Shown: piece after piece, positions 23,071-58,654 of the stretch | Numbering within the stretch: the first letter of the stretch is position 1 | Layout: each line of letters begins with the position of its first letter | Assembly: GCA_965208025.1 (NCBI GenBank) | Contig: OZ242302.1 | Span: 176,696-240,695 of the forward strand | Length of the DNA stretch: 64,000 nt | From: Rhodothermales bacterium | GTDB taxonomy: Bacteria; Bacteroidota; Rhodothermia; Rhodothermales; Bin80 | Reading direction: 5' to 3' | The notes under the pieces: generated by a model | The model's database searches: none | Seen by the model: only the letters and a program-made list of their open reading frames with translations | What the model was told of the DNA's origin: nothing | Translations under genes and position numbers: made by a program

Positions 23071-26052
23071 ATGCCAGTTGGACGAACTACAGAGGAATCC
23101 TTCAACGGCGCACTTGGCCGCTCTTTGCGTCGCGCGCGTGCGATTTGGTCTGAAAGGCCGGAGTGTGTGAAGGTAGAGGAGACGAATCTTTTGCATGCCC
23201 ATCCAGGTCTCAAGCCTGACCTGCTGATTCATGATGGTGTCGTCCCGCCCGTGATTCTTGAATGTTCATTTGATGCGCGGGATGCCGATCAAGATGCAAT
23301 CCAGCGACTTGGGTTAGAGATTCGTCAAGGACGCTATCGGATCGGGACGACGGTGGCACTACGGATTCCGTCAAGCTTTCGCGAGGTGCCGGGATTCAAG
23401 ATTCAGGATGCATTATTGCAAGGGGCATCGCTTTCGTACGCGGTGCACCAATTGACAGAGCGTCAGGGGCAGACTTCGGTTGGAGAAGTATTTCGTCGAC
23501 GCTGGCCCCAACAGGGCTTTATGGAGGGTACGGTCTTTGATCTTGCCGCCCTACTGCCCTCCATTGGAGTACCGCAGGAAACGTTGGAGGAGATTGGGGA
23601 TCGGATTGCGGTTCTGGTCAAGGAAGCCTCCAGCGGCCTGGAACTCGCCTTATCCACCAAGGAGCAGCAGGAGGTCGCTCGCCATTTGCATCAGCGTTCG
23701 CCGCTCAAGGGATTACGTACCATGATGGTCCTGTGGCTGAACGCACTGCTCACGCAGCAACGTCTGGCGATGCAGGGGGCCAACGAAGTGTCGCACATCG
23801 ATCTGTTGCGAGATTCCCTTCCTGATTTGCGTGTTCAGATTGAGTCATGGCGCGCCATTAATCGTCGGAACTGGAATTCGGTCTTTGAACCAGCGATCCA
23901 GATGCTTCAATTGTCTGCCAAATTTAATCCTCTGGAGACCGCACGGATGCTCTTCAAACTGATTGGTGCGGTTGGGCAAATTGAGACCGCGCAGTTAGGA
24001 TTGCACATTAGCGTGGGGGCGGAGTTGTTTCCCAAACTGAGTGAGGACCGCAAAGAGGCGGCAGCGTTTTATACGCAACCTGCCACGGCAGAGCTTCTGT
24101 CAAGTCTGACGATTGATCCATCGCGTCTCACAGCCGATGAATGGCGGGATTCGGATCTATTCCATACGCGCCGATTGAGTGATTTAGCCTGTGGAACGGG
24201 CACGCTTCTTCGGGCAGGCTATCTGCGAATCATCCAGCTTCATGAACAAGCGGGGGGGAGTCAGGAAAGCCTTCGTCGTCTTCATGCGTCGGCGATGGAA
24301 GGGGGCTTGATTGGCACGGACATCAGTCCCATAGCGGCCCATCTGACGACCTCATCACTGGCAGCATTGGGGTATGGGGATCCCTATGGAGATACACAGA
24401 TCGGGTGGGTTAATGTAGGTGGGGGAAAGGGACAGACGGGTGCGCTGGAATACTTTGCCACGCCGAAGGTGGTGGATTTATTCAATGTTGGGGGTGGCAC
24501 CTCTCGTGGGAATGGTGATCAGGAAGAGAATTCTGTTGAGGTATTGGATGGATCCATTGACTGGATTCTGATGAATCCTCCTTATTCAAGAACACGAGGT
24601 GGACAGCGTGTATTTGATGTGGCAGGTCTTTCATCGTCGGAGCGAAGAGATTGTCAGCGCCGGTGGAAGATGCTGGTCAAGTCGGAGCCGGTGAATAATC
24701 AGGCGGGATTGGCGGCATCCTTTTTGGCTTTGGCACGTCGCAAGTGTAAGCCGGGCGGACGGATCGGATTTGTTCTCCCCCTCTCGGCGGCATTTGCCGA
24801 ATCCTGGGCAATCACGCGTCAGATGATAGAGCAAGAGTTTGAAGATGTGTTGGTGATCGGGATCGCGAGTGGGCAGGCGCTCGGGAAGCGTGCACTTTCT
24901 GCCGACACTGGGATGGAAGAGATGTTGTTTGTAGCCACAAAGCGAATGAACCACAATGGAGGGGAACCCAACAGGGAGGCGAGTTCACCTCCGATCCATT
25001 GCATCACTCTTCGAGAGCCTGTGCGACGTGTTGGCGAAGCAGGCGAAGTCGCTCGTGCGATTCAAAGTGTGATTCATCGAACCAAGGCATCAGGCAGCAA
25101 GAGTTCGCCTGTTCATGTTGGAGAGGATGAGATTGGACAGTTATGTGTGCAGCGGATCAGGAAGTCTGGTGATCCGTGGAGTTCACTGGGGGTATTGCAC
25201 GCGGATCTGGCACTGACGGCCCATGCACTGTTGGAAGGGAGCCTACAATTTAATGGGGAGGAAGTATCCGTGGGTGTAGAGATGTGCATGATTCAAGATC
25301 TGTTTGATTTGGGACCAACTCATGATCTGATTGGCCATCTTCCAGGGAAAGATCGTAGAGGGGCATTTGAATTGAGCCCAGTGTATGACGAAGTGGATGC
25401 AATTGGGCAGGACCGTGCACTTTGGAGAGCGGATGCAGGTACACAGAGGCAGTTGATCATTCCGCTCACACATAAGGGGATCACACCGGCAGGGGGCGGA
25501 TCAGAGGAAAAGCGGAAGCAGATGCGACAGTTCCGCAGCACATTGTTCTACGCTCGCAACATGCGTTGGACCTCGCAGGCATTGCTGGCCGCAACCACAT
25601 CGCATCGTGGGATGGGAGGTCGGGCTTGGACATCACTCCAACACAAAGATGAGCGGGTGTATAAAGCTTTTGCCCTATGGGCAAATTCCACGCTTGGCTT
25701 TCTGGTTCATTGGACACAGGGACAGAGAACCCAAAGTGGACGGGCTACCACGCAAATCAAGGCATTGGCCAAGATTCCCTGCCCACGGCTAGATCAAATC
25801 CCAGAGACTCGTCTGGAACGAGTGGTGAAGAGATTTGCTGAGTTAGCCAAGGAAGAGTTACTGCCAGCCTGCCAAGCACATGCAGACGAGGTACGAAAGG
25901 AGATTGATGATGCAGTCCTTGAAATGCTTGCACTTAACCAGAATGAAATCCCTAAAATGATCAGTACACTACGGTGGCTCTGGTGCAATGAACCATCTGT
26001 ACATGGACAAAATCAAAAAGCAAAAAAATTGTTGAAAGAGAGGGGCAGCTAA
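23071..26052 (+). CDS. Type IIG-like fused restriction-modification enzyme, copy 1
   Basis: N-terminal PD...E motif (KPDLLI...ILECSF), FYTQP, SAM-binding DLACGTG (24181), catalytic NPPY (24574), GRIGFVLP and a C-terminal TRD-like region. Confidence 0.82.
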   Translation: MPVGRTTEESFNGALGRSLRRARAIWSERPECVKVEETNLLHAHPGLKPDLLIHDGVVPPVILECSFDARDADQDAIQRLGLEIRQGRYRIGTTVALRIPSSFREVPGFKIQDALLQGASLSYAVHQLTERQGQTSVGEVFRRRWPQQGFMEGTVFDLAALLPSIGVPQETLEEIGDRIAVLVKEASSGLELALSTKEQQEVARHLHQRSPLKGLRTMMVLWLNALLTQQRLAMQGANEVSHIDLLRDSLPDLRVQIESWRAINRRNWNSVFEPAIQMLQLSAKFNPLETARMLFKLIGAVGQIETAQLGLHISVGAELFPKLSEDRKEAAAFYTQPATAELLSSLTIDPSRLTADEWRDSDLFHTRRLSDLACGTGTLLRAGYLRIIQLHEQAGGSQESLRRLHASAMEGGLIGTDISPIAAHLTTSSLAALGYGDPYGDTQIGWVNVGGGKGQTGALEYFATPKVVDLFNVGGGTSRGNGDQEENSVEVLDGSIDWILMNPPYSRTRGGQRVFDVAGLSSSERRDCQRRWKMLVKSEPVNNQAGLAASFLALARRKCKPGGRIGFVLPLSAAFAESWAITRQMIEQEFEDVLVIGIASGQALGKRALSADTGMEEMLFVATKRMNHNGGEPNREASSPPIHCITLREPVRRVGEAGEVARAIQSVIHRTKASGSKSSPVHVGEDEIGQLCVQRIRKSGDPWSSLGVLHADLALTAHALLEGSLQFNGEEVSVGVEMCMIQDLFDLGPTHDLIGHLPGKDRRGAFELSPVYDEVDAIGQDRALWRADAGTQRQLIIPLTHKGITPAGGGSEEKRKQMRQFRSTLFYARNMRWTSQALLAATTSHRGMGGRAWTSLQHKDERVYKAFALWANSTLGFLVHWTQGQRTQSGRATTQIKALAKIPCPRLDQIPETRLERVVKRFAELAKEELLPACQAHADEVRKEIDDAVLEMLALNQNEIPKMISTLRWLWCNEPSVHGQNQKAKKLLKERGS

Positions 26053-26412
26053 CTCTCTGGATTTAACTTTTGGTTGATTACGTGTTGATAGAGGCAAGTC
26101 ATCCACAATGATTAGAATCTCAGTTCTGAAGTTTAGATATTATCCTCATCTACTATGGTAATTTTATTTCCAGAATTTTGCCGTTAATTTATGCTGTTTT
26201 AGGGTTTGATGATGATCATAAGGGGTATTTCAGACTCCATCAATATATTTCAGAACTCACTGAGACTTATTTAATTCAAAATATACGGGGCGCGGACCAC
26301 TTGCAAGATCATCCACATTCTACATGAATTCTGGTACAACCACACGATACGTGATTAAATTGTCCAAGGCATAGGCACTTATATTCATCATGAATTTTTC
26401 CAGATCTTTTTG

Positions 26413-29394
26413 ATGCCAGTTGGACGAACTACAGAGGAATCCTTCAACGGCGCACTTGGCCGCTCTTTGCGTCGCGCGCGTGCGATTTGGTCTGAAAGGC
26501 CGGAGTGTGTGAAGGTAGAGGAGACGAATCTTTTGCATGCCCATCCAGGTCTCAAGCCTGACCTGCTGATTCATGATGGTGTCGTCCCGCCCGTGATTCT
26601 TGAATGTTCATTTGATGCGCGGGATGCCGATCAAGATGCAATCCAGCGACTTGGGTTAGAGATTCGTCAAGGACGCTATCGGATCGGGACGACGGTGGCA
26701 CTACGGATTCCGTCAAGCTTTCGTGAGGTGCCGGGATTCAAGATTGAGGATGCATTATTGCAAGGGGCATCGCTTTCGTACGCGGTGCACCAATTGACAG
26801 AGCGTCAGGGGCAGACTTCGGTTGGAGAAGTATTTCGTCGACGCTGGCCCCAACAGGGCTTTATGGAGGGTACGGTCTTTGATCTTGCCGCCCTACTGCC
26901 CTCCATTGGAGTACCGCAGGAAACGTTGGAGGAGATTGGGGATCGGATTGCGGTTCTGGTCAAGGAAGCCTCCAGCGGCCTGGAACTCGCCTTATCCACC
27001 AAGGAGCAGCAGGAGGTCGCTCGCCATTTGCATCAGCGTTCGCCGCTCAAGGGATTACGTACCATGATGGTCCTGTGGCTGAACGCACTGCTCACGCAGC
27101 AACGTCTGGCGATGCAGGGGGCCAACGAAGTGTCGCACATCGATCTGTTGCGAGATTCCCTTCCTGATTTGCGTGTTCAGATTGAGTCATGGCGCGCCAT
27201 TAATCGTCGGAACTGGAATTCGGTCTTTGAACCAGCGATCCAGATGCTTCAATTGTCTGCCAAATTTAATCCTCTGGAGACCGCACGGATGCTCTTCAAA
27301 CTGATTGGTGCGGTTGGGCAAATTGAGACCGCGCAGTTAGGATTGCACATTAGCGTGGGGGCGGAGTTGTTTCCCAAACTGAGTGAGGACCGCAAAGAGG
27401 CGGCAGCGTTTTATACGCAACCTGCCACGGCAGAGCTTCTGTCAAGTCTGACGATTGATCCATCGCGTCTCACAGCCGATGAATGGCGGGATTCGGATCT
27501 ATTCCATACGCGCCGATTGAGTGATTTAGCCTGTGGAACGGGCACGCTTCTTCGGGCAGGCTATCTGCGAATCATCCAGCTTCATGAACAAGCGGGGGGG
27601 AGTCAGGAAAGCCTTCGTCGTCTTCATGCGTCGGCGATGGAAGGGGGCTTGATTGGCACGGACATCAGTCCCATAGCGGCCCATCTGACGACCTCATCAC
27701 TGGCAGCATTGGGGTATGGGGATCCCTATGGAGATACACAGATCGGGTGGGTTAATGTAGGTGGGGGAAAGGGACAGACGGGTGCGCTGGAATACTTTGC
27801 CACGCCGAAGGTGGTGGATTTATTCAATGTTGGGGGTGGCACCTCTCGTGGGAATGGTGATCAGGAAGAGAATTCTGTTGAGGTATTGGATGGATCCATT
27901 GACTGGATTCTGATGAATCCTCCTTATTCAAGAACACGAGGTGGACAGCGTGTATTTGATGTGGCAGGTCTTTCATCGTCGGAGCGAAGAGATTGTCAGC
28001 GCCGGTGGAAGATGCTGGTCAAGTCGGAGCCGGTGAATAATCAGGCGGGATTGGCGGCATCCTTTTTGGCTTTGGCACGTCGCAAGTGTAAGCCGGGCGG
28101 ACGGATCGGATTTGTTCTCCCCCTCTCGGCGGCATTTGCCGAATCCTGGGCAATCACGCGTCAGATGATAGAGCAAGAGTTTGAAGATGTGTTGGTGATC
28201 GGGATCGCGAGTGGGCAGGCGCTCGGGAAGCGTGCACTTTCTGCCGACACTGGGATGGAAGAGATGTTGTTTGTAGCCACAAAGCGAATGAACCACAATG
28301 GAGGGGAACCCAACAGGGAGGCGAGTTCACCTCCGATCCATTGCATCACTCTTCGAGAGCCTGTGCGACGTGTTGGCGAAGCAGGCGAAGTCGCTCGTGC
28401 GATTCAAAGTGTGATTCATCGAACCAAGGCATCAGGCAGCAAGAGTTCGCCTGTTCATGTTGGAGAGGATGAGATTGGACAGTTATGTGTGCAGCGGATC
28501 AGGAAGTCTGGTGATCCGTGGAGTTCACTGGGGGTATTGCACGCGGATCTGGCACTGACGGCCCATGCACTGTTGGAAGGGAGCCTACAATTTAATGGGG
28601 AGGAAGTATCCGTGGGTGTAGAGATGTGCATGATTCAAGATCTGTTTGATTTGGGACCAACTCATGATCTGATTGGCCATCTTCCAGGGAAAGATCGTAG
28701 AGGGGCATTTGAATTGAGCCCAGTGTATGACGAAGTGGATGCAATTGGGCAGGACCGTGCACTTTGGAGAGCGGATGCAGGTACACAGAGGCAGTTGATC
28801 ATTCCGCTCACACATAAGGGGATCACACCGGCAGGGGGCGGATCAGAGGAAAAGCGGAAGCAGATGCGACAGTTCCGCAGCACATTGTTCTACGCTCGCA
28901 ACATGCGTTGGACCTCGCAGGCATTGCTGGCCGCAACCACATCTCACCGTGGGATGGGAGGTCCCACCTGGACGGCTCTGGTTCACAATGATTCTCGTGT
29001 ATGTGTGGCTTTTGCCCTGTGGGCAAATTCTACGCTTGGCTTCCTGATTCACTGGACACAGGGACAGAGAACACATAGCGGACGCGCACGGACACAAATC
29101 AAGGCATTGGCCAAGATTCCCTGTCCACGGCTTGATCAAATCCCAGAGACTCGTTTGGAACGAGCGGTGAAGAGATTTGCTGAGTTAGCCAAGGAAGAGT
29201 TACTGCCAGCCTGCCAAGCACATGCAGACGAGGTACGAAAGGAGATTGATGATGCAGTCCTTGAAATGCTTGCACTTAACCAGAATGAAATCCCTAAAAT
29301 GATCAGTACACTACGGTGGCTCTGGTGCAATGAACCATCTGTACATGGACAAAATCAAAAAGCAAAAAAATTGTTGAAAGAGAGGGGCAGCTAA
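26413..29394 (+). CDS. Type IIG-like fused restriction-modification enzyme, copy 2 (mosaic)
   Basis: Collinear with copy 1 at offset 3342, with the same motifs. Segment 28944-29165 matches copy 3. Confidence 0.82.
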   Translation: MPVGRTTEESFNGALGRSLRRARAIWSERPECVKVEETNLLHAHPGLKPDLLIHDGVVPPVILECSFDARDADQDAIQRLGLEIRQGRYRIGTTVALRIPSSFREVPGFKIEDALLQGASLSYAVHQLTERQGQTSVGEVFRRRWPQQGFMEGTVFDLAALLPSIGVPQETLEEIGDRIAVLVKEASSGLELALSTKEQQEVARHLHQRSPLKGLRTMMVLWLNALLTQQRLAMQGANEVSHIDLLRDSLPDLRVQIESWRAINRRNWNSVFEPAIQMLQLSAKFNPLETARMLFKLIGAVGQIETAQLGLHISVGAELFPKLSEDRKEAAAFYTQPATAELLSSLTIDPSRLTADEWRDSDLFHTRRLSDLACGTGTLLRAGYLRIIQLHEQAGGSQESLRRLHASAMEGGLIGTDISPIAAHLTTSSLAALGYGDPYGDTQIGWVNVGGGKGQTGALEYFATPKVVDLFNVGGGTSRGNGDQEENSVEVLDGSIDWILMNPPYSRTRGGQRVFDVAGLSSSERRDCQRRWKMLVKSEPVNNQAGLAASFLALARRKCKPGGRIGFVLPLSAAFAESWAITRQMIEQEFEDVLVIGIASGQALGKRALSADTGMEEMLFVATKRMNHNGGEPNREASSPPIHCITLREPVRRVGEAGEVARAIQSVIHRTKASGSKSSPVHVGEDEIGQLCVQRIRKSGDPWSSLGVLHADLALTAHALLEGSLQFNGEEVSVGVEMCMIQDLFDLGPTHDLIGHLPGKDRRGAFELSPVYDEVDAIGQDRALWRADAGTQRQLIIPLTHKGITPAGGGSEEKRKQMRQFRSTLFYARNMRWTSQALLAATTSHRGMGGPTWTALVHNDSRVCVAFALWANSTLGFLIHWTQGQRTHSGRARTQIKALAKIPCPRLDQIPETRLERAVKRFAELAKEELLPACQAHADEVRKEIDDAVLEMLALNQNEIPKMISTLRWLWCNEPSVHGQNQKAKKLLKERGS

Positions 29395-29497
29395 CTCTCT
29401 GGATTTAACTTTTGGTTGATTACGTGTTGATAGAGGCAAGTCATCCACAATGATTAGAATCTCAGTTCTGAAGTTTGGATATTATCCTCATCTACTA

Positions 29498-30655
29498 TTG
29501 TAGTGTTTCATTAGTTCTTTTACATTAGACTTTGATAGATTCCAGAATCTGATCAGCAGATTTTGTCCAAATGAAAGGCTTGGGATCCTCATTGTAAACT
29601 TTCAGATACTGTTTGATCGCATCTTCCAGTTCTTTTGTGCTACGATGCGTTCCTCGCCGAATTTGGTCATTGGTAATCTTGGTAAACCAGCGTTCCACAA
29701 GATTCAGCCAAGAAGAACTGGTCGGCGTGAAATGAAGATGGAACCGCGGACGGCGAAGTAGCCAGTTATGAATCAGCGCTGTTTTGTGAGTGCTGTAATT
29801 GTCTAATACAATATGAACCTCCATCTCCTCAGGAACCGATCGGTCAATGACACGCAGGAATTTGAGAAATTCCATCAAGCGATGTCGCCGATAACACCGT
29901 CCAGTTACCTCTCCAATAGCTACATTCAGCGCCGCAAACAGAGAGGTAGCCCCATTCTGTTTGTAATCGTGAGTGCGCCGTTCGGGTAACTCTGGACGAA
30001 AGGGTAAGATCGGTTCGGTTCGATCTAAAGCCTGAATCTGGGATTTTTCATCTACGCACAGCACCACAGCACGCTCGGGGGGAGATAGATAGAGTCCTAC
30101 AATGTCCCGTACCTTTTCAATGAACAGGGGATCCTTGGACAGCTTAAAGGTCTCTACACGGTGGGGCTTGAGACCAAACGCACGCCAGATTCGGCTGACG
30201 GTGCTTAGACTCATGCCAGTAGCCGCTGCCATCTTGCGTGTGCTCCAGTGGGTTGCATCCCGGGGAGTAGACTCCAAGGTCTTCGTGATGACCCGTTCTA
30301 CATCTTCATCCAACACGGTTCGGGGTTTGCCAGGTCGAGGCCGATCAAGTAACCCGTCAGAGCGCAATTCTAAAAAACGTCTCCGCCATTTTCCAACCGT
30401 TACTCGGGAGGTCCCCAAGATCTCGGCGATTGTCTGATCACTATGCCCCTCTGCTGCCTTCAAAATGATCCGACTACGCAATGCAAGTGCCTGTGCCGTG
30501 GTTGGTCGACGTACCCAACGGTTTAATTCAGCCCGTTCAGCATCACTCAGTACGGGAGTTTTACGAGTATAATGATTTGCCATGGGTTTCAATTAAGTTC
30601 GAACCCAAGATACGAAAAACTGATTTACTGACAATGATATAAAGACACACTACAT
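29498..30655 (-). mobile_element. IS630-family insertion sequence (1158 bp)
   Basis: Imperfect terminal IRs (TGTAGTGTTTCATTAG.../...ATAAAGACACACTACA). TA is duplicated at 29496-29497 and 30656-30657, and the empty site CATCTAC-TA-TGGTAATT is at 26154-26155. Confidence 0.95.
29525..30583 (-). CDS. IS630-family DDE transposase (possibly 10 codons short)
   Basis: HTH N-terminus, HWSTRKMA, VDEKSQIQAL, LDNYSTHK, SWLNLVERWF and PKPFIWTK. Confidence 0.93.
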   Translation of the reverse strand: MANHYTRKTPVLSDAERAELNRWVRRPTTAQALALRSRIILKAAEGHSDQTIAEILGTSRVTVGKWRRRFLELRSDGLLDRPRPGKPRTVLDEDVERVITKTLESTPRDATHWSTRKMAAATGMSLSTVSRIWRAFGLKPHRVETFKLSKDPLFIEKVRDIVGLYLSPPERAVVLCVDEKSQIQALDRTEPILPFRPELPERRTHDYKQNGATSLFAALNVAIGEVTGRCYRRHRLMEFLKFLRVIDRSVPEEMEVHIVLDNYSTHKTALIHNWLLRRPRFHLHFTPTSSSWLNLVERWFTKITNDQIRRGTHRSTKELEDAIKQYLKVYNEDPKPFIWTKSADQILESIKV

Positions 30656-30913
30656 TATGGTAATTTTATTTCCAGAATTTTGCCGTTAATTCATGCTGTT
30701 TTAGGGTTTGATGATGATCATAAGGGGTATTTCAGACTCTATCAATATATTTGAGAACTCACTGAGACTTATTTAATTCAAAATATACGGGGCGCGGACC
30801 ACTTGCAAGATCATCCCATTCTACATGAATTCTGGTACAACCACACGATACGTGATTAAATTGTCCAAGGCACAGACCCTTATATTCATTATGAATTTTT
30901 CCAGAACTTTTTG

Positions 30914-33910
30914 ATGCCAGTCGGACGAACTGCAGAGGAATCTTTCAACGGAGCACTTGGCCGCTCTTTGCGTCGTGCGCGTGCGATTTGGTCTGAAAGG
31001 CCGGAGTGTGTGAAGGTAGAGGAGACGAATCTTTTGCATGCCCATCCAGGTCTCAAGCCTGACCTGCTGATTCATGATGGTGTCGTCCCGCCCGTGATTC
31101 TTGAATGTTCATTTGATGCGCGGGATGCCGATCAAGATGCAATCCAGCGACTTGGGTTAGAGATTCGTCAAGGACGCTATCGGATCGGGACGACGGTGGC
31201 ACTACGGATTCCGTCAAGCTTTCGCGAGGTGCCGGGATTCAAGATTCAGGATGCATTATTGCAAGGGGCATCGCTTTCGTACGCGGTTCATCAATTGACA
31301 GAGCGTCAGGGGCAGACTTCGGTAGGAGAAGTGTTTCGTCGACGCTGGCCTCAACAAGGCTTTATGGAGGGTACGGTCTTTGATCTTGCCGCCCTACTGC
31401 CCTCCATTGGAGTACCGCAGGAAACGTTGGAGGAGATTGGGGATCGGATTGCGGTTCTGGTCAAGGAAGCCTCCAGCGGTCTGGAACTCGCCTTATCCAC
31501 CAAGGAGCAGCAGGAGGTCGCTCGCCATTTGCATCAGCGTTCGCCGCTCAAGGGATTGCGTACCATGATGGTCCTGTGGCTGAACGCACTGCTCACGCAA
31601 CAACGTCTGGCGATGCAGGGGGCCAACGAAGTGTCGCACATCGATCTGTTGCGAGATTCCCTTCCTGATTTGCGTGTTCAGATTGAGTCATGGCGCGCCA
31701 TTAATCGTCGGAACTGGAATTCGGTCTTTGAACCAGCGATCCAGATGCTTCAATTGTCTGCCAAATTTAATCCTCTGGAGACCGCACGGATGCTCTTCAA
31801 ACTGATTGGTGCGGTTGGGCAAATTGAGACCGCGCAGTTAGGATTGCACATTAGCGTGGGGGCGGAGTTGTTTCCCAAACTGAGTGAGGACCGCAAAGAG
31901 GCGGCAGCGTTTTATACGCAACCTGCCACGGCAGAGCTTCTGTCAAGTCTGACGATTGATCCATCGCGTCTCACAGCCGATGAATGGCGGGATTCGGATC
32001 TATTCCATACGCGCCGATTGAGTGATTTAGCCTGTGGAACGGGCACGCTTCTTCGGGCAGGCTATCTGCGAATCATCCAGCTTCATGAACATGCGGGGGG
32101 GAGTCAGGAAAGCCTTCGTCGTCTCCATGCGTCGGCGATGGAAGGGGGCTTGATTGGCACGGACATCAGTCCCATAGCGGCCCATCTGACGACCTCATCA
32201 CTGGCAGCATTGGGGTATGGGGATCCCTATGGAGATACACAGATCGGGTGGATTGATGTAGGTGGGGGAAAGGGACAGACGGGTGCGCTGGAATACTTTG
32301 CCACGCCGAAGGTGGTGGATTTATTCAATGTTGGGGGTGGTACTTCTCGCGGGAATGGTGATCAGGAAGAGAATTCTGTTGAGGTATTGGATGGATCCAT
32401 TGACTGGATTCTGATGAATCCTCCTTATTCAAGAACACGAGGTGGACAGCGTGTATTTGATGTGGCAGGTCTTTCATCGTCGGAGCGAAGAGATTGTCAG
32501 CGCCGGTGGAAGATGCTGGTCAAGTCGGAGCCGGTGAATAATCAGGCGGGATTGGCGGCATCCTTTTTGGCTTTGGCACGTCGCAAGTGTAAGCCGGGCG
32601 GACGGATCGGATTTGTTCTCCCCCTCTCGGCGGCATTTGCCGAATCCTGGGCAATCACGCGTCAGATGATAGAGCAAGAGTTTGAAGATGTGTTGGTGAT
32701 CGGGATCGCGAGTGGGCAGGCGCTCGGGAAGCGTGCACTTTCTGCCGACACTGGGATGGAAGAGATGTTGTTTGTAGCCACAAAGCGAATGAACCACAAT
32801 GGAGGGGAACCCAACAGGGAGGCGAGTTCACCTCCGATCTATTGCATCACTCTTCGAGAGCCTGTGCGACGTGTTGGCGAAGCAGGCGAAGTCGCTCGTG
32901 CGATTCAAAGTGTGATTCATCGAACCAAGGCATCAGGCAGCAAGAGTTCGCCTGTTCATGTTGGAGAGGATGAGATTGGACAGTTATGTGTGCAGCGGAT
33001 CAGGAAGTCTGGTGATCCGTGGAGTTCACTGGGGGTATTGCACGCGGATCTGGCACTGACGGCCCATGCACTGTTGGAAGGGAGCCTACAATTTAATGGG
33101 GAGGAAGTATCCCTTGGAGTAGAGATGTGCACGATTCAAGATCTATTTGAATTGGGACCAACCCATCACCTGATTGGACATCTCTCGGGGCAAGAGAATA
33201 TTGGGGCATTTGAGTTGAGTCCAGTATATGACGAAGTGGATGCAATTGGGCCGGACCGTGCACTCTGGAGAGCGGATGCGGGTACTCAAAGACAGTTGGT
33301 CATCCCGCTCACGCATAAGGGGATCACACCGGCAGGGGGCGGATCAGAGGAAAAGCGGGAGCAGATGCGACAGTTCCGCAGCACATTGTTCTACGCTCGC
33401 AACATGCGTTGGACCTCTCAGGCTTTGCTGGCCGCAACCACATCTCACCGTGGGATGGGAGGTCCCACCTGGACGGCTCTGGTTCACAATGATTCTCGTG
33501 TATGTGTGGCTTTTGCCCTGTGGGCAAATTCTACGCTTGGCTTCCTGATTCACTGGACACAGGGACAGAGAACACATAGCGGACGCGCACGGACACAAAT
33601 CAAGGCATTGGCCAAGATTCCCTGTCCACGGCTTGATCAAATCCCAGAGACTCGTTTGGAACGAGCGGTGAAGAGATTTGATGAGTTAGCCAAGGAGAAG
33701 TTACTGCCTGCCTGTCAGGCACATGCAGATGAGATACGAAAGGAAATTGATGATTCAGTTCTTGAAATGCTTACACTTAACCAGAATGAAGTCCCTAAAA
33801 TGATCAGCACACTACGGTGGCTCTGGTGCAATGAACCATCTGTGCACGGACAAAATCAAAAAGCCCTCTCCTTGATCACAGAGCGAGGAGCGCCGAGAAA
33901 TATGATTTAG
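30914..33910 (+). CDS. Type IIG-like fused restriction-modification enzyme, copy 3
   Basis: Collinear with copy 1 at offset 7843, with the same motifs. It diverges from about 33113 onward and has a different C-terminus. Confidence 0.82.
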   Translation: MPVGRTAEESFNGALGRSLRRARAIWSERPECVKVEETNLLHAHPGLKPDLLIHDGVVPPVILECSFDARDADQDAIQRLGLEIRQGRYRIGTTVALRIPSSFREVPGFKIQDALLQGASLSYAVHQLTERQGQTSVGEVFRRRWPQQGFMEGTVFDLAALLPSIGVPQETLEEIGDRIAVLVKEASSGLELALSTKEQQEVARHLHQRSPLKGLRTMMVLWLNALLTQQRLAMQGANEVSHIDLLRDSLPDLRVQIESWRAINRRNWNSVFEPAIQMLQLSAKFNPLETARMLFKLIGAVGQIETAQLGLHISVGAELFPKLSEDRKEAAAFYTQPATAELLSSLTIDPSRLTADEWRDSDLFHTRRLSDLACGTGTLLRAGYLRIIQLHEHAGGSQESLRRLHASAMEGGLIGTDISPIAAHLTTSSLAALGYGDPYGDTQIGWIDVGGGKGQTGALEYFATPKVVDLFNVGGGTSRGNGDQEENSVEVLDGSIDWILMNPPYSRTRGGQRVFDVAGLSSSERRDCQRRWKMLVKSEPVNNQAGLAASFLALARRKCKPGGRIGFVLPLSAAFAESWAITRQMIEQEFEDVLVIGIASGQALGKRALSADTGMEEMLFVATKRMNHNGGEPNREASSPPIYCITLREPVRRVGEAGEVARAIQSVIHRTKASGSKSSPVHVGEDEIGQLCVQRIRKSGDPWSSLGVLHADLALTAHALLEGSLQFNGEEVSLGVEMCTIQDLFELGPTHHLIGHLSGQENIGAFELSPVYDEVDAIGPDRALWRADAGTQRQLVIPLTHKGITPAGGGSEEKREQMRQFRSTLFYARNMRWTSQALLAATTSHRGMGGPTWTALVHNDSRVCVAFALWANSTLGFLIHWTQGQRTHSGRARTQIKALAKIPCPRLDQIPETRLERAVKRFDELAKEKLLPACQAHADEIRKEIDDSVLEMLTLNQNEVPKMISTLRWLWCNEPSVHGQNQKALSLITERGAPRNMI

Positions 33911-56308: not shown

Positions 56309-56421
56309 ATTTCATCTCGTAGGGTGGTTAACTTTCAATAATTTTGCCCCACCGTAGGCGCTTTCTTATCAAGATATCAGGTGGTTAAGGCACTTCCTTC
56401 AGTATGTTCTCGCCCCCTTAT
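56309..56421 (+). repeat. 113-bp target-site direct repeat (left)
   Basis: Identical to 58345-58457 and abuts the IS inverted repeat exactly. Confidence 0.95.
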
Positions 56422-58344
56422 CCTGACTTCGACGGTTTGCAATTTTCTGAAAACAAAGAGAGCCTTATTTTTCAGTGGATACAGGTCTTTTGAAAAGAGT
56501 GTTCAGACAACTTTGAACACTACAAACACCGTCGGTTTTACCGCTTTTTGCGGTCTGAATACCAGACGTTAAGCAATCACTTGGGAGGCGGGTTACGGGT
56601 CTTTCTCCAAGGGTACGGTCTGGCGCTGAATCGTCAACCCCATCGCTTTGTAAAGCCGAACTTTTGTACTGCTCGCCGCCGACGGGATCGCAAAATGACG
56701 CTGGGTCGTCTTGTCTCGTACCACGGACACCTCTACTTCACGCAACTGAGCCAAAATCTGTCCCTCACTGATGGGCGCCTCCGCGCCATGTCGCGTGTTG
56801 TAGATTCGACGCAGAATGCGCAGCATCGCAAAGGTGGCAAAGCATATGGCAATGTGCGCGCGGACGCGGCGCTCAGTCCAGTGAAACACCGGACGAACCG
56901 CCATGGTATGCTTTAACACACGAAAGCCTTCCTCAATCTGCCATAATCCCCCGTATGGCCGCTGCATTCAGCTTCACCGCATTCCGGTTCACGTTCAAGT
57001 AACGACCCTTCTGACCCGATCCCTTGACCCCAGATGCCAAACGCTTCTGGGCTTTCGTTACCGCCTTCTCTCGTTCGTGTGCGTCCTTGGCCGCACGATT
57101 TGGACAATATCGCACGATGAGCCGCCTCCCCCCAATCCGCACTTCGCTTACCTTGCGCCCATCCGCGGTGGACTGCCACTTGAGGGTGCCCGTAACCTTA
57201 CGCAATTCCTCCGCCTTCATTGAGCGCAAACGGGCCGCAACCACATAGTCATGCCCCATACTTTGCAGTAAGGCGACATTGTCCGCACTCAGCATCCCAG
57301 AATCCGCCACAACCACCACACGGTCCAATGCAAAACGGGCCTTCAACGAGGTGATCGCTGGCTCCAGTGTCTTTACGTCCGCGGTGTTGCCTTCAAACAA
57401 CTCATAGCCGACGGGCAGTCCGTCATGGGTCTGCATCAGGGCCAAGACCACCTGCACACGAGTATGCTTCCCATCTTTACTGTATCCCTTCTTGCGGAGT
57501 CCGTCGGGCTTGTCCGAAGCAAACGCCAGCGTGGTCACATCAAAAAACAGTACATCCAGCTTGCTTCCGAGTAAGTCGGTCACCTCCCGGGCCACGATCG
57601 ACTGCAACTGCGCAATGCGCCGATCATCTACCGCATCCATCATGCGGTAAAACTTGTGGACCGGGACTTCCACGCCATCTTCCTTGGACAGTTGCCGCGC
57701 ATGCGCCAGTTTGCTGTCGCCAGGGGATCCTAGACGTAACAATACGGCTTGCCTGAATAGACGCGCAGCCATTGCATGCCGTTTGGAAAACAACTGATCG
57801 AACCCCATCCGCATATACAAGGCCCCAAACACCTCATGAAAGCCCACACAGATCCGCTTGACCTCCTCCAGCTTGCGGATATCTTCCAGCGGGATGGGCT
57901 GGTCGGACGGTTTCCTACGTCGGGCCTCCAATGCGGCATGCGCACTATGCTCCGACGGAAACAAGGACGGCTTGATCTCTTCTTCAATCCGCAATCGTTC
58001 CTGTTCCGCAATGTGCAGGAGGGCCTCCAATGCCGGGCCTTCGGGGGCCGTGCCCATATAGCGCACGATCCTCTGCCGCACTTTACCATCCTTTGTGCGG
58101 TCATTGCGCACGATCTGGACAGCAATGTTTTGGGTCGTCTTTCGTTTGAGTTTGCGGACGAACATGATACAGGTAAGATACGGCACAGGATTCAAATATC
58201 CAAATCAAAAAACAGACTGAACACTACATATTGAGAACTCGAAAAACAGGGCTAAAATGGCCCCAAATACCCCAAAAAAGCCCAAAAATCACTCAAAAAT
58301 GGCTATTTTGCCCTCCAAGTCAACACCTACCTGTCGAAGTCAGG
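56422..58344 (-). mobile_element. IS1634-family insertion sequence (1923 bp)
   Basis: Perfect 12-bp IRs CCTGACTTCGAC/GTCGAAGTCAGG, 113-bp flanking DR, higher GC than flanks and an IS1634-type transposase. Confidence 0.93.
56593..58165 (-). pseudogene. IS1634 transposase, frameshifted by apparent internal deletion near 56955
   Basis: ORF1 has FFDVTT, GYSKDGK, FEGNTAD and VADSG. The catalytic LWQIEEGFR..K..RPVFHW..RVRAH lies in another frame. Confidence 0.88.
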
Positions 58345-58457
58345 ATTTCATCTCGTAGGGTGGTTAACTTTCAATAATTTTGCCCCACCGTAGGCGCTTT
58401 CTTATCAAGATATCAGGTGGTTAAGGCACTTCCTTCAGTATGTTCTCGCCCCCTTAT
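58345..58457 (+). repeat. 113-bp target-site direct repeat (right)
   Basis: Identical to 56309-56421. Confidence 0.95.
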
Positions 58458-58654
58458 TCTGTCTCGGATACAGCTTCAGAGTTTAGCTCCAGATGATTTG
58501 GATCAAGAAAATGAGAAAATATGGTGTGAATCCATTCTTATTTAAGTAAGTATTACGTGAAAATGTGAAGAATTCAGCATTGCTGGGCTCTCTTCATTAA
58601 TTCTCTTGAATCTGTATTACTGTTAAAACTTCTAAGTCAGGTCAAACAAAGTGA

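Follow-up and report, generated by a model that had tools for sequence, protein, structure and literature searches.

The second of three tandem paralogous genes in a Rhodothermales genome is a mosaic. It carries bases of the first copy, then a short block of bases of the third copy, and then bases of the first copy again, a double switch that was confirmed and lies far beyond chance. The exchanged block falls within the predicted recognition domain (TRD) of the encoded protein. We consider it probable that gene conversion acting on part of the TRD of copy 2 has reshuffled specificity modules, the effect on specificity being argued from analogy and from the position of the block in the TRD. The window analyzed here is the whole stretch of 64,000 nucleotides within which three near-identical genes for a single-chain protein of ∼993 aa lie in tandem. 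Coordinates of the genes, the spacers, and the tract are collected in Table 1.

Table 1. Features of the tandem array and of the mosaic tract in copy 2 (window coordinates)
Feature	Position	Strand	Description
Copy 1	23071..26052	+	993 aa; patch A D752/R763, patch B R851/T893 (from ORF, translation, and state typing)
Copy 2, mosaic gene	26413..29394	+	993 aa from ATG; start in ORF list TTG 26410; patch A D752/R763 (copy-1-type), patch B P851/R893 (copy-3-type)
Copy 3	30914..33910	+	998 aa from ATG; start in ORF list TTG 30911; patch A H752/I763, patch B P851/R893
Spacer, copy 1/copy 2	26053..26412		360 bp
Spacer, copy 2/copy 3	29395-~29502 and ~30656-30913		Same spacer, split by the IS
IS630-type DDE_3 transposase	29525..30592	-	355 aa, in the second spacer; PF13358, E 9.6e-20
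Patch A core	28666..28701	+	Codons 752-763; copy 2 copy-1-type D...R, copy 3 H...I; unconverted in copy 2
Left junction block	28924..28943	+	20 bp common to the three copies; codons ~838-844, right after the conserved RNMRWTSQ block
Maximal tract	28924..29179	+	256 bp; 100% identity to copy 3 (33425-33680), 84% to copy 1 (25582-25837)
Minimal tract	28944..29165	+	222 bp, first to last copy-3-type diagnostic site; 41 differences from copy 1; codons 844-918
Patch-B switch, first half	28963..28968	+	Codons 851-852; copy 2 Pro-Thr, copy 1 Arg-Ala
Patch-B switch, second half	29089..29091	+	Codon 893; copy 2 Arg, copy 1 Thr
Right junction block	29166..29179	+	14 bp common to the three copies

The three copies were aligned with MAFFT, and statistics were computed on the 2950 ungapped coding columns (26413-29362). 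Only 43 of these 2950 bases distinguish copy 1 from copy 2, namely, the 41 sites of the tract together with 26724 and 26746. Read 5′ to 3′ in copy 2, 51 consecutive sites at which copies 1 and 2 agree against copy 3 extend from 26787 to 28923; 5′ of the tract, copy 2 has the copy-1-type TCGCAGGCATTG, versus TCTCAGGCTTTG in copy 3. They are followed by 41 consecutive sites (28944-29165) at which copies 2 and 3 agree against copy 1, and from 29180 agreement with copy 1 against copy 3 resumes, extending past the stop codon and along the spacer as far as the IS insertion near 29502. A previous sequence-only reading of this DNA had described copy-1 bases up to 28923, copy-3 bases at the diagnostic sites that it compared, synonymous ones included, and copy-1 bases again from 29180 through the stop and spacer, and the three-way alignment bears out each of these segments. 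In total, 113 sites are informative (72 copy-1-type and 41 copy-3-type), and all 41 copy-3-type sites are contiguous. A run of 41 was reached in 0 of 200,000 label permutations, where the longest run was 14, and the exact probability that all 41 would be contiguous is 6.7e-30. Copies 2 and 3 have 0 differences in the 256-bp tract and 50 in the 517 bp (9.7%) of adjoining flanks (28590-28923 and 29180-29362); the expectation for the tract is ∼25 differences, and the probability of finding none is ∼5e-12 to 2e-11.

Copies 1 and 2 differ in 30 codons of the tract, 12 of which change the residue and 18 of which are synonymous only. The synonymous-only codons indicate that the tract is an imported divergent segment rather than a set of selected point mutations, and convergent point mutation was rejected on these codons together with the mixed substitution spectrum. 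A single unequal crossover is ruled out, because copy 2 is copy-1-type on both sides of the tract; the sequence-only reading had accordingly called for conversion or two crossovers. It had also placed the junctions in short identical blocks and the tract over a variable patch B, both of which hold: the blocks are identical in the three copies, as expected under homologous recombination, and the patch-B codons lie inside the minimal tract. Copy 3 retains the tract, so the transfer on this chromosome looks non-reciprocal, as gene conversion gives. The reciprocal product is found in no copy, and the same picture would result if sister chromosomes exchanged the tract by a reciprocal double crossover and then segregated. 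The tract was also considered as the target of a diversity-generating retroelement and this was rejected, since the 41 changes comprise 12 substitution types with only 14 changes from A, and the source of the tract is copy 3; no reverse transcriptase was found among the 11 ORFs scanned between 19337 and 36562. Neighbors of the array are an isocitrate/isopropylmalate dehydrogenase, a small membrane ORF, and a GT2 glycosyltransferase, and the final ∼45 nt of copy 3 lie outside the repeat unit. A scan of the spacer for promoters and terminators returned 2 promoter-like sites, with 1.6 expected, and no terminator, and was uninformative.

Residue coupling at the two variable patches was counted over 159 unique homologues. 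Positions 851/893 of patch B hold R with T, P, or S in 107/159 sequences and S or P with R in 46/159, the other pairs accounting for 6 and R at both positions for 0. Positions 752/763 of patch A hold D or G with R in 76/159 and H with a residue other than R in 81/159, with 2 exceptions. The states are thus R851...T893 versus P/S851...R893 at patch B and D752...R763 versus H752...I/L763 at patch A, and, as read from the residues, each cassette moves or removes an arginine. Switching was scored on a scaffold tree built from aa 1-720 only, on which the minimum number of changes was 39 for patch A and 28 for patch B. Across 28 independent pairs, 851R and 893R changed in opposite directions in 22 to 23 and in the same direction in 0, with no difference in 5 to 6 (p ∼5e-7). 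The equivalent comparison of 752H with 763R gave opposite changes in 29 to 30 of 31 independent pairs and the same change in 0 (p ∼2e-9). The state of patch A shows no dependence on that of patch B (median p 0.73). Patch B thus belongs to a pair of family-wide two-state cassettes, which goes beyond the view of the sequence-only reading and makes the tract more than a local accident.

In other genomes, paralogues with 95 to 100% identity over aa 1-720 are told apart by patch A alone (genomes G002, G003, and G005), by patch B alone (G010, G008, and G020), or by both. Close paralogues carry distinct patch combinations in 14/14 genomes examined; a per-genome test gives 6.9e-5, a value that overstates the case because it treats related genomes as independent. 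All four combinations occur in one strain (P0016, P0130, P0131, and P0133, each on a contig of 4,148,270 bases). In G020, the paralogues L034 and L034b differ only at codons 851-860 and 892-895 and are identical between them. The window's own genome has a further, 51%-identical paralogue (L004) that types as (D...R, R...T), like copy 1, and for this reason the sets are non-redundant among close paralogues only.

The predicted layout of the protein, from sequence and models, is Type IIG/IIL-like: an N-terminal PD-(D/E)xK-like domain, a helical spacer, a gamma-class N6-adenine methyltransferase (MTase), and a C-terminal TRD. The methylase motifs are DLACGTGTLL (371-380) and NPPY (502-505), of which D371, C374, G375, G377, and N502-Y505 are invariant in 39/39 aligned sequences, and they stand in the gamma-class order, motif I before motif IV. 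A whole-chain AF2 model (pLDDT 85.6) was searched with Foldseek, in which the best match was BpuSI (PDB 3s1s, E 9e-19), followed by CamA, PglX/BrxX, and DrdV. VIA gave CamA (7lt5) at Z 24.8 over residues 328-960, which supports the MTase fold, and DrdV (7lo5) at Z 21.6 over 55-950. A model of the C-terminal part alone (aa 640-993, pLDDT 92) matched the BpuSI TRD over aa 705-983 (Z 13.8, rmsd 3.6, 227 aligned), with further TRD matches to PglX (Z 9.4), CamA (9.2), HsdS 1yf2 (8.4), and MmeI (5.6). The models place both patches inside the TRD-matching region and, with them, the conversion tract inside the TRD. Linear interpolation of the VIA ranges puts 851/893 near MmeI 751-774/806-810; this is arithmetic on range ends rather than an alignment and carries no evidential weight.

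Sequence identity to the structural neighbors BpuSI, DrdV, and CamA is 11 to 14%, and a cluster look-up gave no names for close homologues. Pfam at its default threshold returned no family for any of the three copies, and the curated models fell below their cutoffs (PF02384 N6_Mtase, 15.6 versus 20.4 bits; PF07669 Eco57I, 14.3 versus 25.3). The PADLOC IIG models (REase_MTase_IIG) matched partial stretches only (E 8e-4 to 1e-3). Searching the PDB with a profile found BrxX alone (E 0.66) and no MmeI match, and phmmer of the TRD against the PDB gave matches at chance level only, hence no residue-level alignment with MmeI. Two named systems were rejected. The MADS methyltransferase MAD2 was the sole NCBIfam match (NF047738), at 12.5 bits against a cutoff of 720, and no MADS genes neighbor the array (the PADLOC mad2 match, E 2.9e-7, covers the MTase core only). 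BREX PglX/BrxX is alike in fold only, and no BREX genes flank the array. The array protein is Type IIG/IIL-like rather than a proven member.

The candidate nuclease motif reads P49-D50...E64-C65-S66, with predicted strands at 51-53 and 61-66, and the DrdV alignment takes in the N-terminal domain (from model residue 25/55 onward) as part of the longer match. S66, invariant in 39/39 aligned sequences, occupies the position of the canonical PD-(D/E)xK lysine. Cutting of DNA by the array protein is putative, and the protein may be a methylase only, as suggested by the replacement of the lysine by S66 and by the loss of cleavage in MmeI K82A. The term "RM copy" used in the sequence-only reading is therefore apt for the fold and the methylase motifs, which fit a Type IIG/IIL-like enzyme, and less so for the nuclease motif, in which the lysine is an invariant serine.

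The closest guide to what the cassettes might do is MmeI. In Morgan & Luyten (2009, PMC2731914), the changes E806/R808 to K806/D808 and E751/N773 to R751/D773 each switch one base of the recognition sequence, and the switches combine. The same text predicts natural recombination of part of the TRD for MmeI-type enzymes and reports a Microcystis pair of MmeI-family paralogues that are 98.5% identical outside the TRD. The MmeI-family Type IIL enzymes (PMC2731914; Callahan et al. 2016, PMC4833311) and the array protein are alike in joining, within a single chain, an N-terminal nuclease-type domain to a gamma-class adenine methylase and a C-terminal TRD, in having co-varying and often charge-swapping TRD pairs whose discrete states combine independently, and in including paralogues that are nearly identical except for the TRD. 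The array protein differs from MmeI in that it lacks detectable sequence similarity, matches the TRD fold only at Z 5.6, and has ExS rather than ExK; moreover, the exchange is seen directly in the array as a 222-256 bp tract within the TRD, between tandem copies, and each of the two sites has strictly two states. Specificities were measured for MmeI, whereas distinct specificities of the array proteins are a prediction.

By analogy with the co-varying pairs of the MmeI family, each cassette probably determines a single position in the recognition sequence. Under the favored explanation, copy 2 would be essentially a recent duplicate of copy 1, into whose TRD homologous, non-reciprocal recombination brought 222 to 256 bp from copy 3, with ends in the 20-bp and 14-bp common blocks. 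The converted segment is not arbitrary, as it carries one of the two discrete family-wide two-state TRD cassettes, and through the conversion a third specificity, (D,PT), would have joined (D,RA) and (H,PT). As a single TRD directs every activity of the polypeptide, such a swap would alter modification and, provided that the enzyme cuts, restriction at the same time.

Parsimony suggests that the transfer ran from copy 3 to copy 2. The opposite history is unlikely: copy 2 may once have been copy-3-like through the whole TRD, copy 1 having overwritten both sides while selection kept the patch-B island. Paralogues in the genus that are 98 to 100% identical except at the patches are what homogenization with selection-protected islands would give, and the two short differing sub-blocks of L034/L034b in G020 resemble erosion down to the selected residues. 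This history, however, takes two conversion tracts, one of at least 2.5 kb and another of at least 0.3 kb, where the favored one takes a single tract. A relic island would also be expected to have diverged from copy 3, but there is no difference across the maximal tract.

A comparably improbable reading accepts the mosaic as real and takes the cassettes to tune some other property of the TRD, such as escape from phage DNA-mimic inhibitors, oligomerization, or partner binding. The structural neighbor PglX/BrxX is bound by the Ocr inhibitor (according to PDB entry titles), binary alleles kept across species are typical of arms-race surfaces, and the link from cassette to specificity consists of analogy and location in the TRD. 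The gain of an arginine at one site with its loss at another is, however, the pattern of the MmeI changes in base-pair recognition, both patches lie in a fold that reads DNA in BpuSI, CamA, HsdS, and MmeI, and the non-identical combinations kept by genomes fit distinct targets.

It is very unlikely that copy 1 is instead the altered gene, i.e., that copies 1 and 2 were both copy-3-type at patch B and copy 1 later imported R...T from outside the array, a possibility raised by the sequence-only reading. R...T is the majority state of the family, and donors are common in nature. However, the copy-1 patch is 100% identical in the window's own genome to itself alone, followed by copies 2 and 3 (84%) and L004 (68%), and no donor above 84% was found in that genome and 23 other genomes of the genus, where the best match was 82%. 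Both patch-B alleles have their best match outside the array, at 79 to 82%, in G010. Import into copy 1 also leaves unexplained why copies 2 and 3 are identical in the tract and 9.7% divergent in the flanks, so that an exchange between copies 2 and 3 would still be needed.

The junctions were followed in contigs from public sequencing runs, which hide the linkage of both junctions, copy number, and rare variants. In one study, three runs yield a 266-nt contig that matches 28914-29179 without a mismatch. It carries the copy-1-type bases at 28917 and 28923 together with the whole tract, has fewer than 31 letters on the left side of the left junction, and ends exactly at 29179; the following contig begins exactly at 29166. 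Contig ends at these two positions are the de Bruijn graph break expected if copy 2 exists as assembled. The right junction is bridged by a 167-nt contig from a run of a second study (29059-29225, 0 mismatches, depth only 4). The assembly may itself derive from the three best runs, and among the contigs of the public runs each junction is carried separately, with no record spanning both. An assembly artefact, in which near-identical repeats or co-existing metagenome strains were merged into one consensus, is scarcely credible: relatives' records are titled metagenome-assembled genomes, the copies are >98% identical over 2.2 kb, and the two junctions share no single contig record, yet contigs of three runs join the copy-1-type bases to the tract, breaks fall exactly at 28943/28914 and 29179/29166 as expected if all three copies exist, the second study crosses the right junction without a mismatch, the contigs report no alternative letters, and equivalent patch-only differences occur in 13 other genomes.

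Gene conversion of part of the TRD in copy 2 can also be set beside other systems, as far as the accessible parts of their descriptions allow. The movement or replacement of TRDs in Helicobacter pylori ("DoMo") in Type I, IIG, and III systems (Furuta et al. 2011, PMC3077401; 2014, PMC3983042) is alike in that recombination at conserved flanks moves recognition modules while the rest of the gene stays constant. In DoMo, it is an entire TRD of a separate S subunit, with defined repeats at its flanks, that changes place between TRD1 and TRD2, whereas in the array a fragment of a single TRD (∼75 to 85 codons) of a fused enzyme moves between tandem paralogues, with two states per module. BpuSI, DrdV, and CamA are alike in whole-chain or MTase-plus-TRD fold, and tandem arrays and cassette dimorphism do not appear in the available parts of their descriptions. 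The Neisseria pilE/pilS silent cassettes and the Mycoplasma pulmonis hsdS shufflons (cited in PMC3077401) similarly use short tracts between paralogous sequences to vary a functional surface. In contrast to these, the array copies are full length, have their own starts, and lie in direct orientation, with no invertase and no silent cassettes; there is also no sign of high-frequency switching, as no variants occur in the contigs, which hide rare ones.

Change of RM specificity by recombination of whole recognition domains is already known. The array would add exchange of part of a domain, resolved to the base pair, between neighboring genes, and this exchange follows a general rule in an uncharacterized family: two binary cassettes, coupled pairs, dozens of independent switches, and non-redundant sets within genomes. 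It would be a natural counterpart of the "plug-and-play" engineering of MmeI. More tentatively, and at somewhat less than an even chance, this uncultured Rhodothermales genus may use a natural "two-bit" target code, in which one scaffold bears two independent two-state arginine-relocation cassettes (752/763 and 851/893), duplication builds arrays, and short conversions within the TRD assort the cassettes, giving every copy its own combination. Should each cassette read a single base pair, the arrays would encode sets of recognition sites differing at one or two positions, and the methylated motifs of the copies are predicted to differ at one position per cassette. If this is true, the family would offer a new scaffold for engineering DNA specificity, a second, sequence-unrelated and naturally validated platform for the rational re-targeting of methylases or restriction enzymes, and it would be a clear case of tandem duplication and micro-conversion building a multi-specificity defense or epigenetic repertoire.

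In a three-way MAFFT alignment of the tandem copies, copy 2 carries 51 copy 1-type sites in succession from 26787 to 28923, followed by 41 copy 3-type sites in succession from 28944 to 29165, and is copy 1-type again from 29180 on through the stop codon and spacer. The sequence-only reading had reported this mosaic as a gene-conversion tract, and all its statements on the copy 2 sequence were correct in the alignment. The double switch also held up statistically. Among 2950 ungapped coding columns, 113 sites were informative (72 copy 1-type and 41 copy 3-type), and all copy 3-type sites fell in a single contiguous run. A run of 41 was reached in 0/200,000 permutations, the longest permuted run being 14, and for all 41 to fall together the exact probability is 6.7e-30.

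Features of the copy array and related loci (window positions unless a genome is named)
Feature	Position	Strand	Remarks
Copy 1 ORF	23071-26052	+	Patch A D, patch B RA
Copy 2 ORF	26413-29394	+	Patch A D, patch B PT
Copy 3 ORF	30914-33910	+	Patch A H, patch B PT
Nuclease-like motif, copy 1 codons 49-66	23216-23268		P49-D50...E64-C65-S66
Left junction block	28924-28943		Identical across copies 1, 2, and 3
Right junction block	29166-29179		Identical across copies 1, 2, and 3
IS630-type transposase ORF	29525-30592	minus	DDE_3 and HTH domains; element 29503-30655, splits copy 2-copy 3 spacer
Direct repeat, 120 nt	56309-56428 and 58345-58464		Pair at 98% identity, spaced 2036 bp; no relation to array
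L008, orthologous locus	G010:C1:1603240-1609206		Single-copy, closest relative
L040, sister subfamily	G020:C1:1526000-1541000		Four copies
L041, sister subfamily	G023:C1:2903000-2914000		Three copies

The array consists of three direct tandem copies of a ~3-kb ORF with a 360-bp spacer between copies, flanked by housekeeping genes (a dehydrogenase, a small membrane ORF, and a glycosyltransferase). Contigs from public sequencing runs also carry an uninterrupted spacer, with a loose end at 29502; the uninterrupted form is the copy 1-copy 2 spacer. The L008 neighborhood contains a dehydrogenase, a small membrane ORF, a gene, and a GT2.

Within the 256-bp maximal tract, copies 2 and 3 show 0 differences, compared to 50 differences in 517 bp (9.7%) of the adjoining flanks. 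At the flank rate, ~25 differences would be expected in the tract, and the probability of observing none is roughly 5e-12. Copies 1 and 2 differ at 43 positions, 41 of them in the tract, where 18 codons differ only synonymously, 12 change a residue, and the changes are spread over 12 substitution types. Because of the synonymous-only codons and the range of substitution types, the tract is read as an imported divergent segment. Selected point mutation was rejected as its origin on the former ground and adenine-targeted mutagenesis on the latter. The sole copy 2-specific differences outside the tract are at 26724 (R104, CGC>CGT, synonymous) and 26746 (Q112E). A paralogue in the closest relative, L027, has the copy 2 residues at both sites and the copy 2 codon at 104, and these differences may be retained from an ancestor or may stem from a second micro-conversion.

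The simplest history suggested by these comparisons would begin with tandem duplication of the copy 1 unit; outside the tract, copies 1 and 2 differ at 2 of about 2700 sites. Copy 3 would then have donated patch B to copy 2 in a single short, non-reciprocal transfer, resolved within the shared blocks of 20 bp and 14 bp. The chief competing history, in which copy 1 homogenized copy 2 on both sides and selection kept an island at patch B, seems unlikely. Import of copy 1's patch from outside the array is very improbable, as no donor was found in the window's own genome or in 23 others of the genus and the identity of the copy 2 and copy 3 tracts would be left unexplained.

Artifactual joining during assembly was considered by comparing four public runs, as contigs, over 28300-29700. 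In three runs of one study, which may be the assembly's own source, a 131-nt contig terminates at 28943, a 266-nt contig equals 28914-29179 with 0 mismatches, and the following contig begins at 29166. These breaks are obligatory k-mer graph branch points if the three copies exist as assembled. The 266-nt contig includes copy 1-type bases at 28917 and 28923 plus the entire copy 3-type tract, and falls short at the left junction of the 31 letters per side required for bridging. The second-study run, filed under another organism code, has a 167-nt contig (29059-29225, 0 mismatches, depth 4) that extends across the right junction by >46 letters in both directions. No contig of the four runs spans both junctions, and thus single-molecule linkage rests on the assembly itself. 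An assembly artifact is regarded as extremely unlikely.

The converted tract coincides exactly with patch B, one of two patches in the C-terminal target recognition domain (TRD) that are dimorphic family-wide in an alignment of the three window copies and 31 congeneric full-length homologues. The patch A core (residues 752/763) reads PTHD..G.D.RGAF or PTHH..G...[I/L]GAF, and the patch B core (residues 851/852 and 893) reads GGRAW...SGR[A/S]TTQ or GG[P/S]TW...SGR[A/S]RTQ. Divergence between copies 1 and 3 is 1.0% (22/2175 nt) over aa 1-725 and 11.9% (89/750 nt) over aa 726-975, with a sharp step at window ~28590-28612 (codons ~726-734). The array scaffold is homogenized, with the TRD-coding quarter an older, separate haplotype; the array thus carries two TRD haplotypes on one scaffold, of which copy 2 is the copy 1/copy 3/copy 1 recombinant.

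Residue coupling was analyzed in 159 unique homologues (169 before duplicate removal), including ~50%-identical proteins from MAGs of other phyla. Arginine at 851 accompanies T/P/S at 893 in 107 sequences and S/P accompanies arginine in 46, with 6 other pairings; two arginines never co-occur. At 752/763, D/G pairs with arginine in 76 and H with a non-arginine residue in 81 (other, 2). On a FastTree tree of aa 1-720 only, which leaves out both patches, a minimum of 39 state changes was needed for patch A and of 28 for patch B. Among 28 phylogenetically independent pairs differing at 851R, 893R changed oppositely in 22-23, in the same direction in 0, and showed no difference in 5-6, giving a sign-test p of about 5e-7. 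For 752H and 763R, 29-30 of 31 pairs were opposite and 0 the same (about 2e-9). The two patches are mutually independent (median p 0.73), and all four combinations occur, in 55, 51, 24, and 22 sequences.

Paralogue pairs in other genomes are 95-100% identical over aa 1-720 and differ at one or both patches only: at patch A in G002, G003, and a tandem pair in G005, and at patch B in G010 and G008. G020 holds a tandem triple typed (H,RA), (H,PT), and (D,RA), with the patch B difference shrunk to codons 851-860 and 892-895 and identical sequence between. In a related strain, four ≥90%-identical proteins (P0016, P0130, P0131, and P0133), recorded on a 4,148,270-base contig, jointly cover all four combinations. 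L008 is (H,RA), the fourth combination, missing from the window's array. Close paralogues carry distinct combinations in 14/14 genomes examined, with a probability of 6.9e-5 under independence that overstates the case because the genomes are related. L004, a 51%-identical paralogue from the genome of the window, has the copy 1 type, a point against any strict rule. Tandem arrays are also formed by a sister subfamily (~30% identity). Differences among the L040 copies are confined to small stretches at the C terminus; in L041, identity between copies 0 and 1 is 100% for roughly the first 600 aa and drops to 35-78% across the entire TRD, a whole-TRD swap. Several matches to homologues in G005, G012, G020, G008, and G003 were reported with one in-frame stop; the extracted sequences have their first stop at or near the normal C terminus, and the reported stops are probably end effects.

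No curated family model matched the array proteins at threshold. The sequence contains gamma-class adenine-methylase motifs (DLACGTG and NPPY), and an AF2 model from 39 sequences (pLDDT 85.6) had the Type IIG enzyme BpuSI as top Foldseek match (E 9e-19), then CamA, PglX/BrxX, and DrdV. In VIA, CamA gave Z 24.8 (residues 328-960) and DrdV Z 21.6 (residues 55-950). Modeled on their own, aa 640-993 (pLDDT 92) matched the BpuSI TRD (Z 13.8, rmsd 3.6, 227 aligned, aa 705-983) and also the TRDs of PglX, CamA, Type I HsdS, and MmeI. Motifs and fold matches thus give a Type IIG/IIL-like layout of nuclease-like domain, helical spacer, methylase, and TRD. The canonical PD-(D/E)xK lysine, a defining Type IIG/IIL feature, is absent, its place taken by S66, invariant in 39/39 sequences. 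In MmeI the motif is D70...E80-x-K82, and K82A kills cleavage. The invariant serine makes restriction activity uncertain for the whole family.

Movement of whole TRDs by recombination is well documented in Helicobacter pylori DoMo (PMC3077401; PMC3983042), whereas the exchange here is sub-TRD in scale. A non-exhaustive search of the open-access literature found no prior description of such two-cassette sub-TRD exchange. What is new is a sub-TRD exchange resolved to a single base, in an enzyme family with neither a curated model nor detectable sequence similarity to MmeI, with a two-cassette binary organization and with tandem arrays of non-redundant combinations.

In the MmeI family, co-varying TRD residue pairs, often arginine charge swaps, each set one base pair; single swaps inactivate, double swaps re-target, and changes at different positions combine (PMC2731914), with contact details confirmed in PMC4833311. 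The authors of PMC2731914 predicted natural recombination of partial TRDs and described a Microcystis pair 98.5% identical outside the TRD. The array family resembles this model: its states are binary and strictly coupled in pairs, an arginine is relocated, the patches combine independently, and both lie in the TRD fold. Because one TRD serves both restriction and modification in the MmeI family, specificity can shift without host death (PMC2731914). Since the pattern fits the MmeI model, we consider it somewhat probable that the tract in copy 2 represents a specificity-cassette swap.
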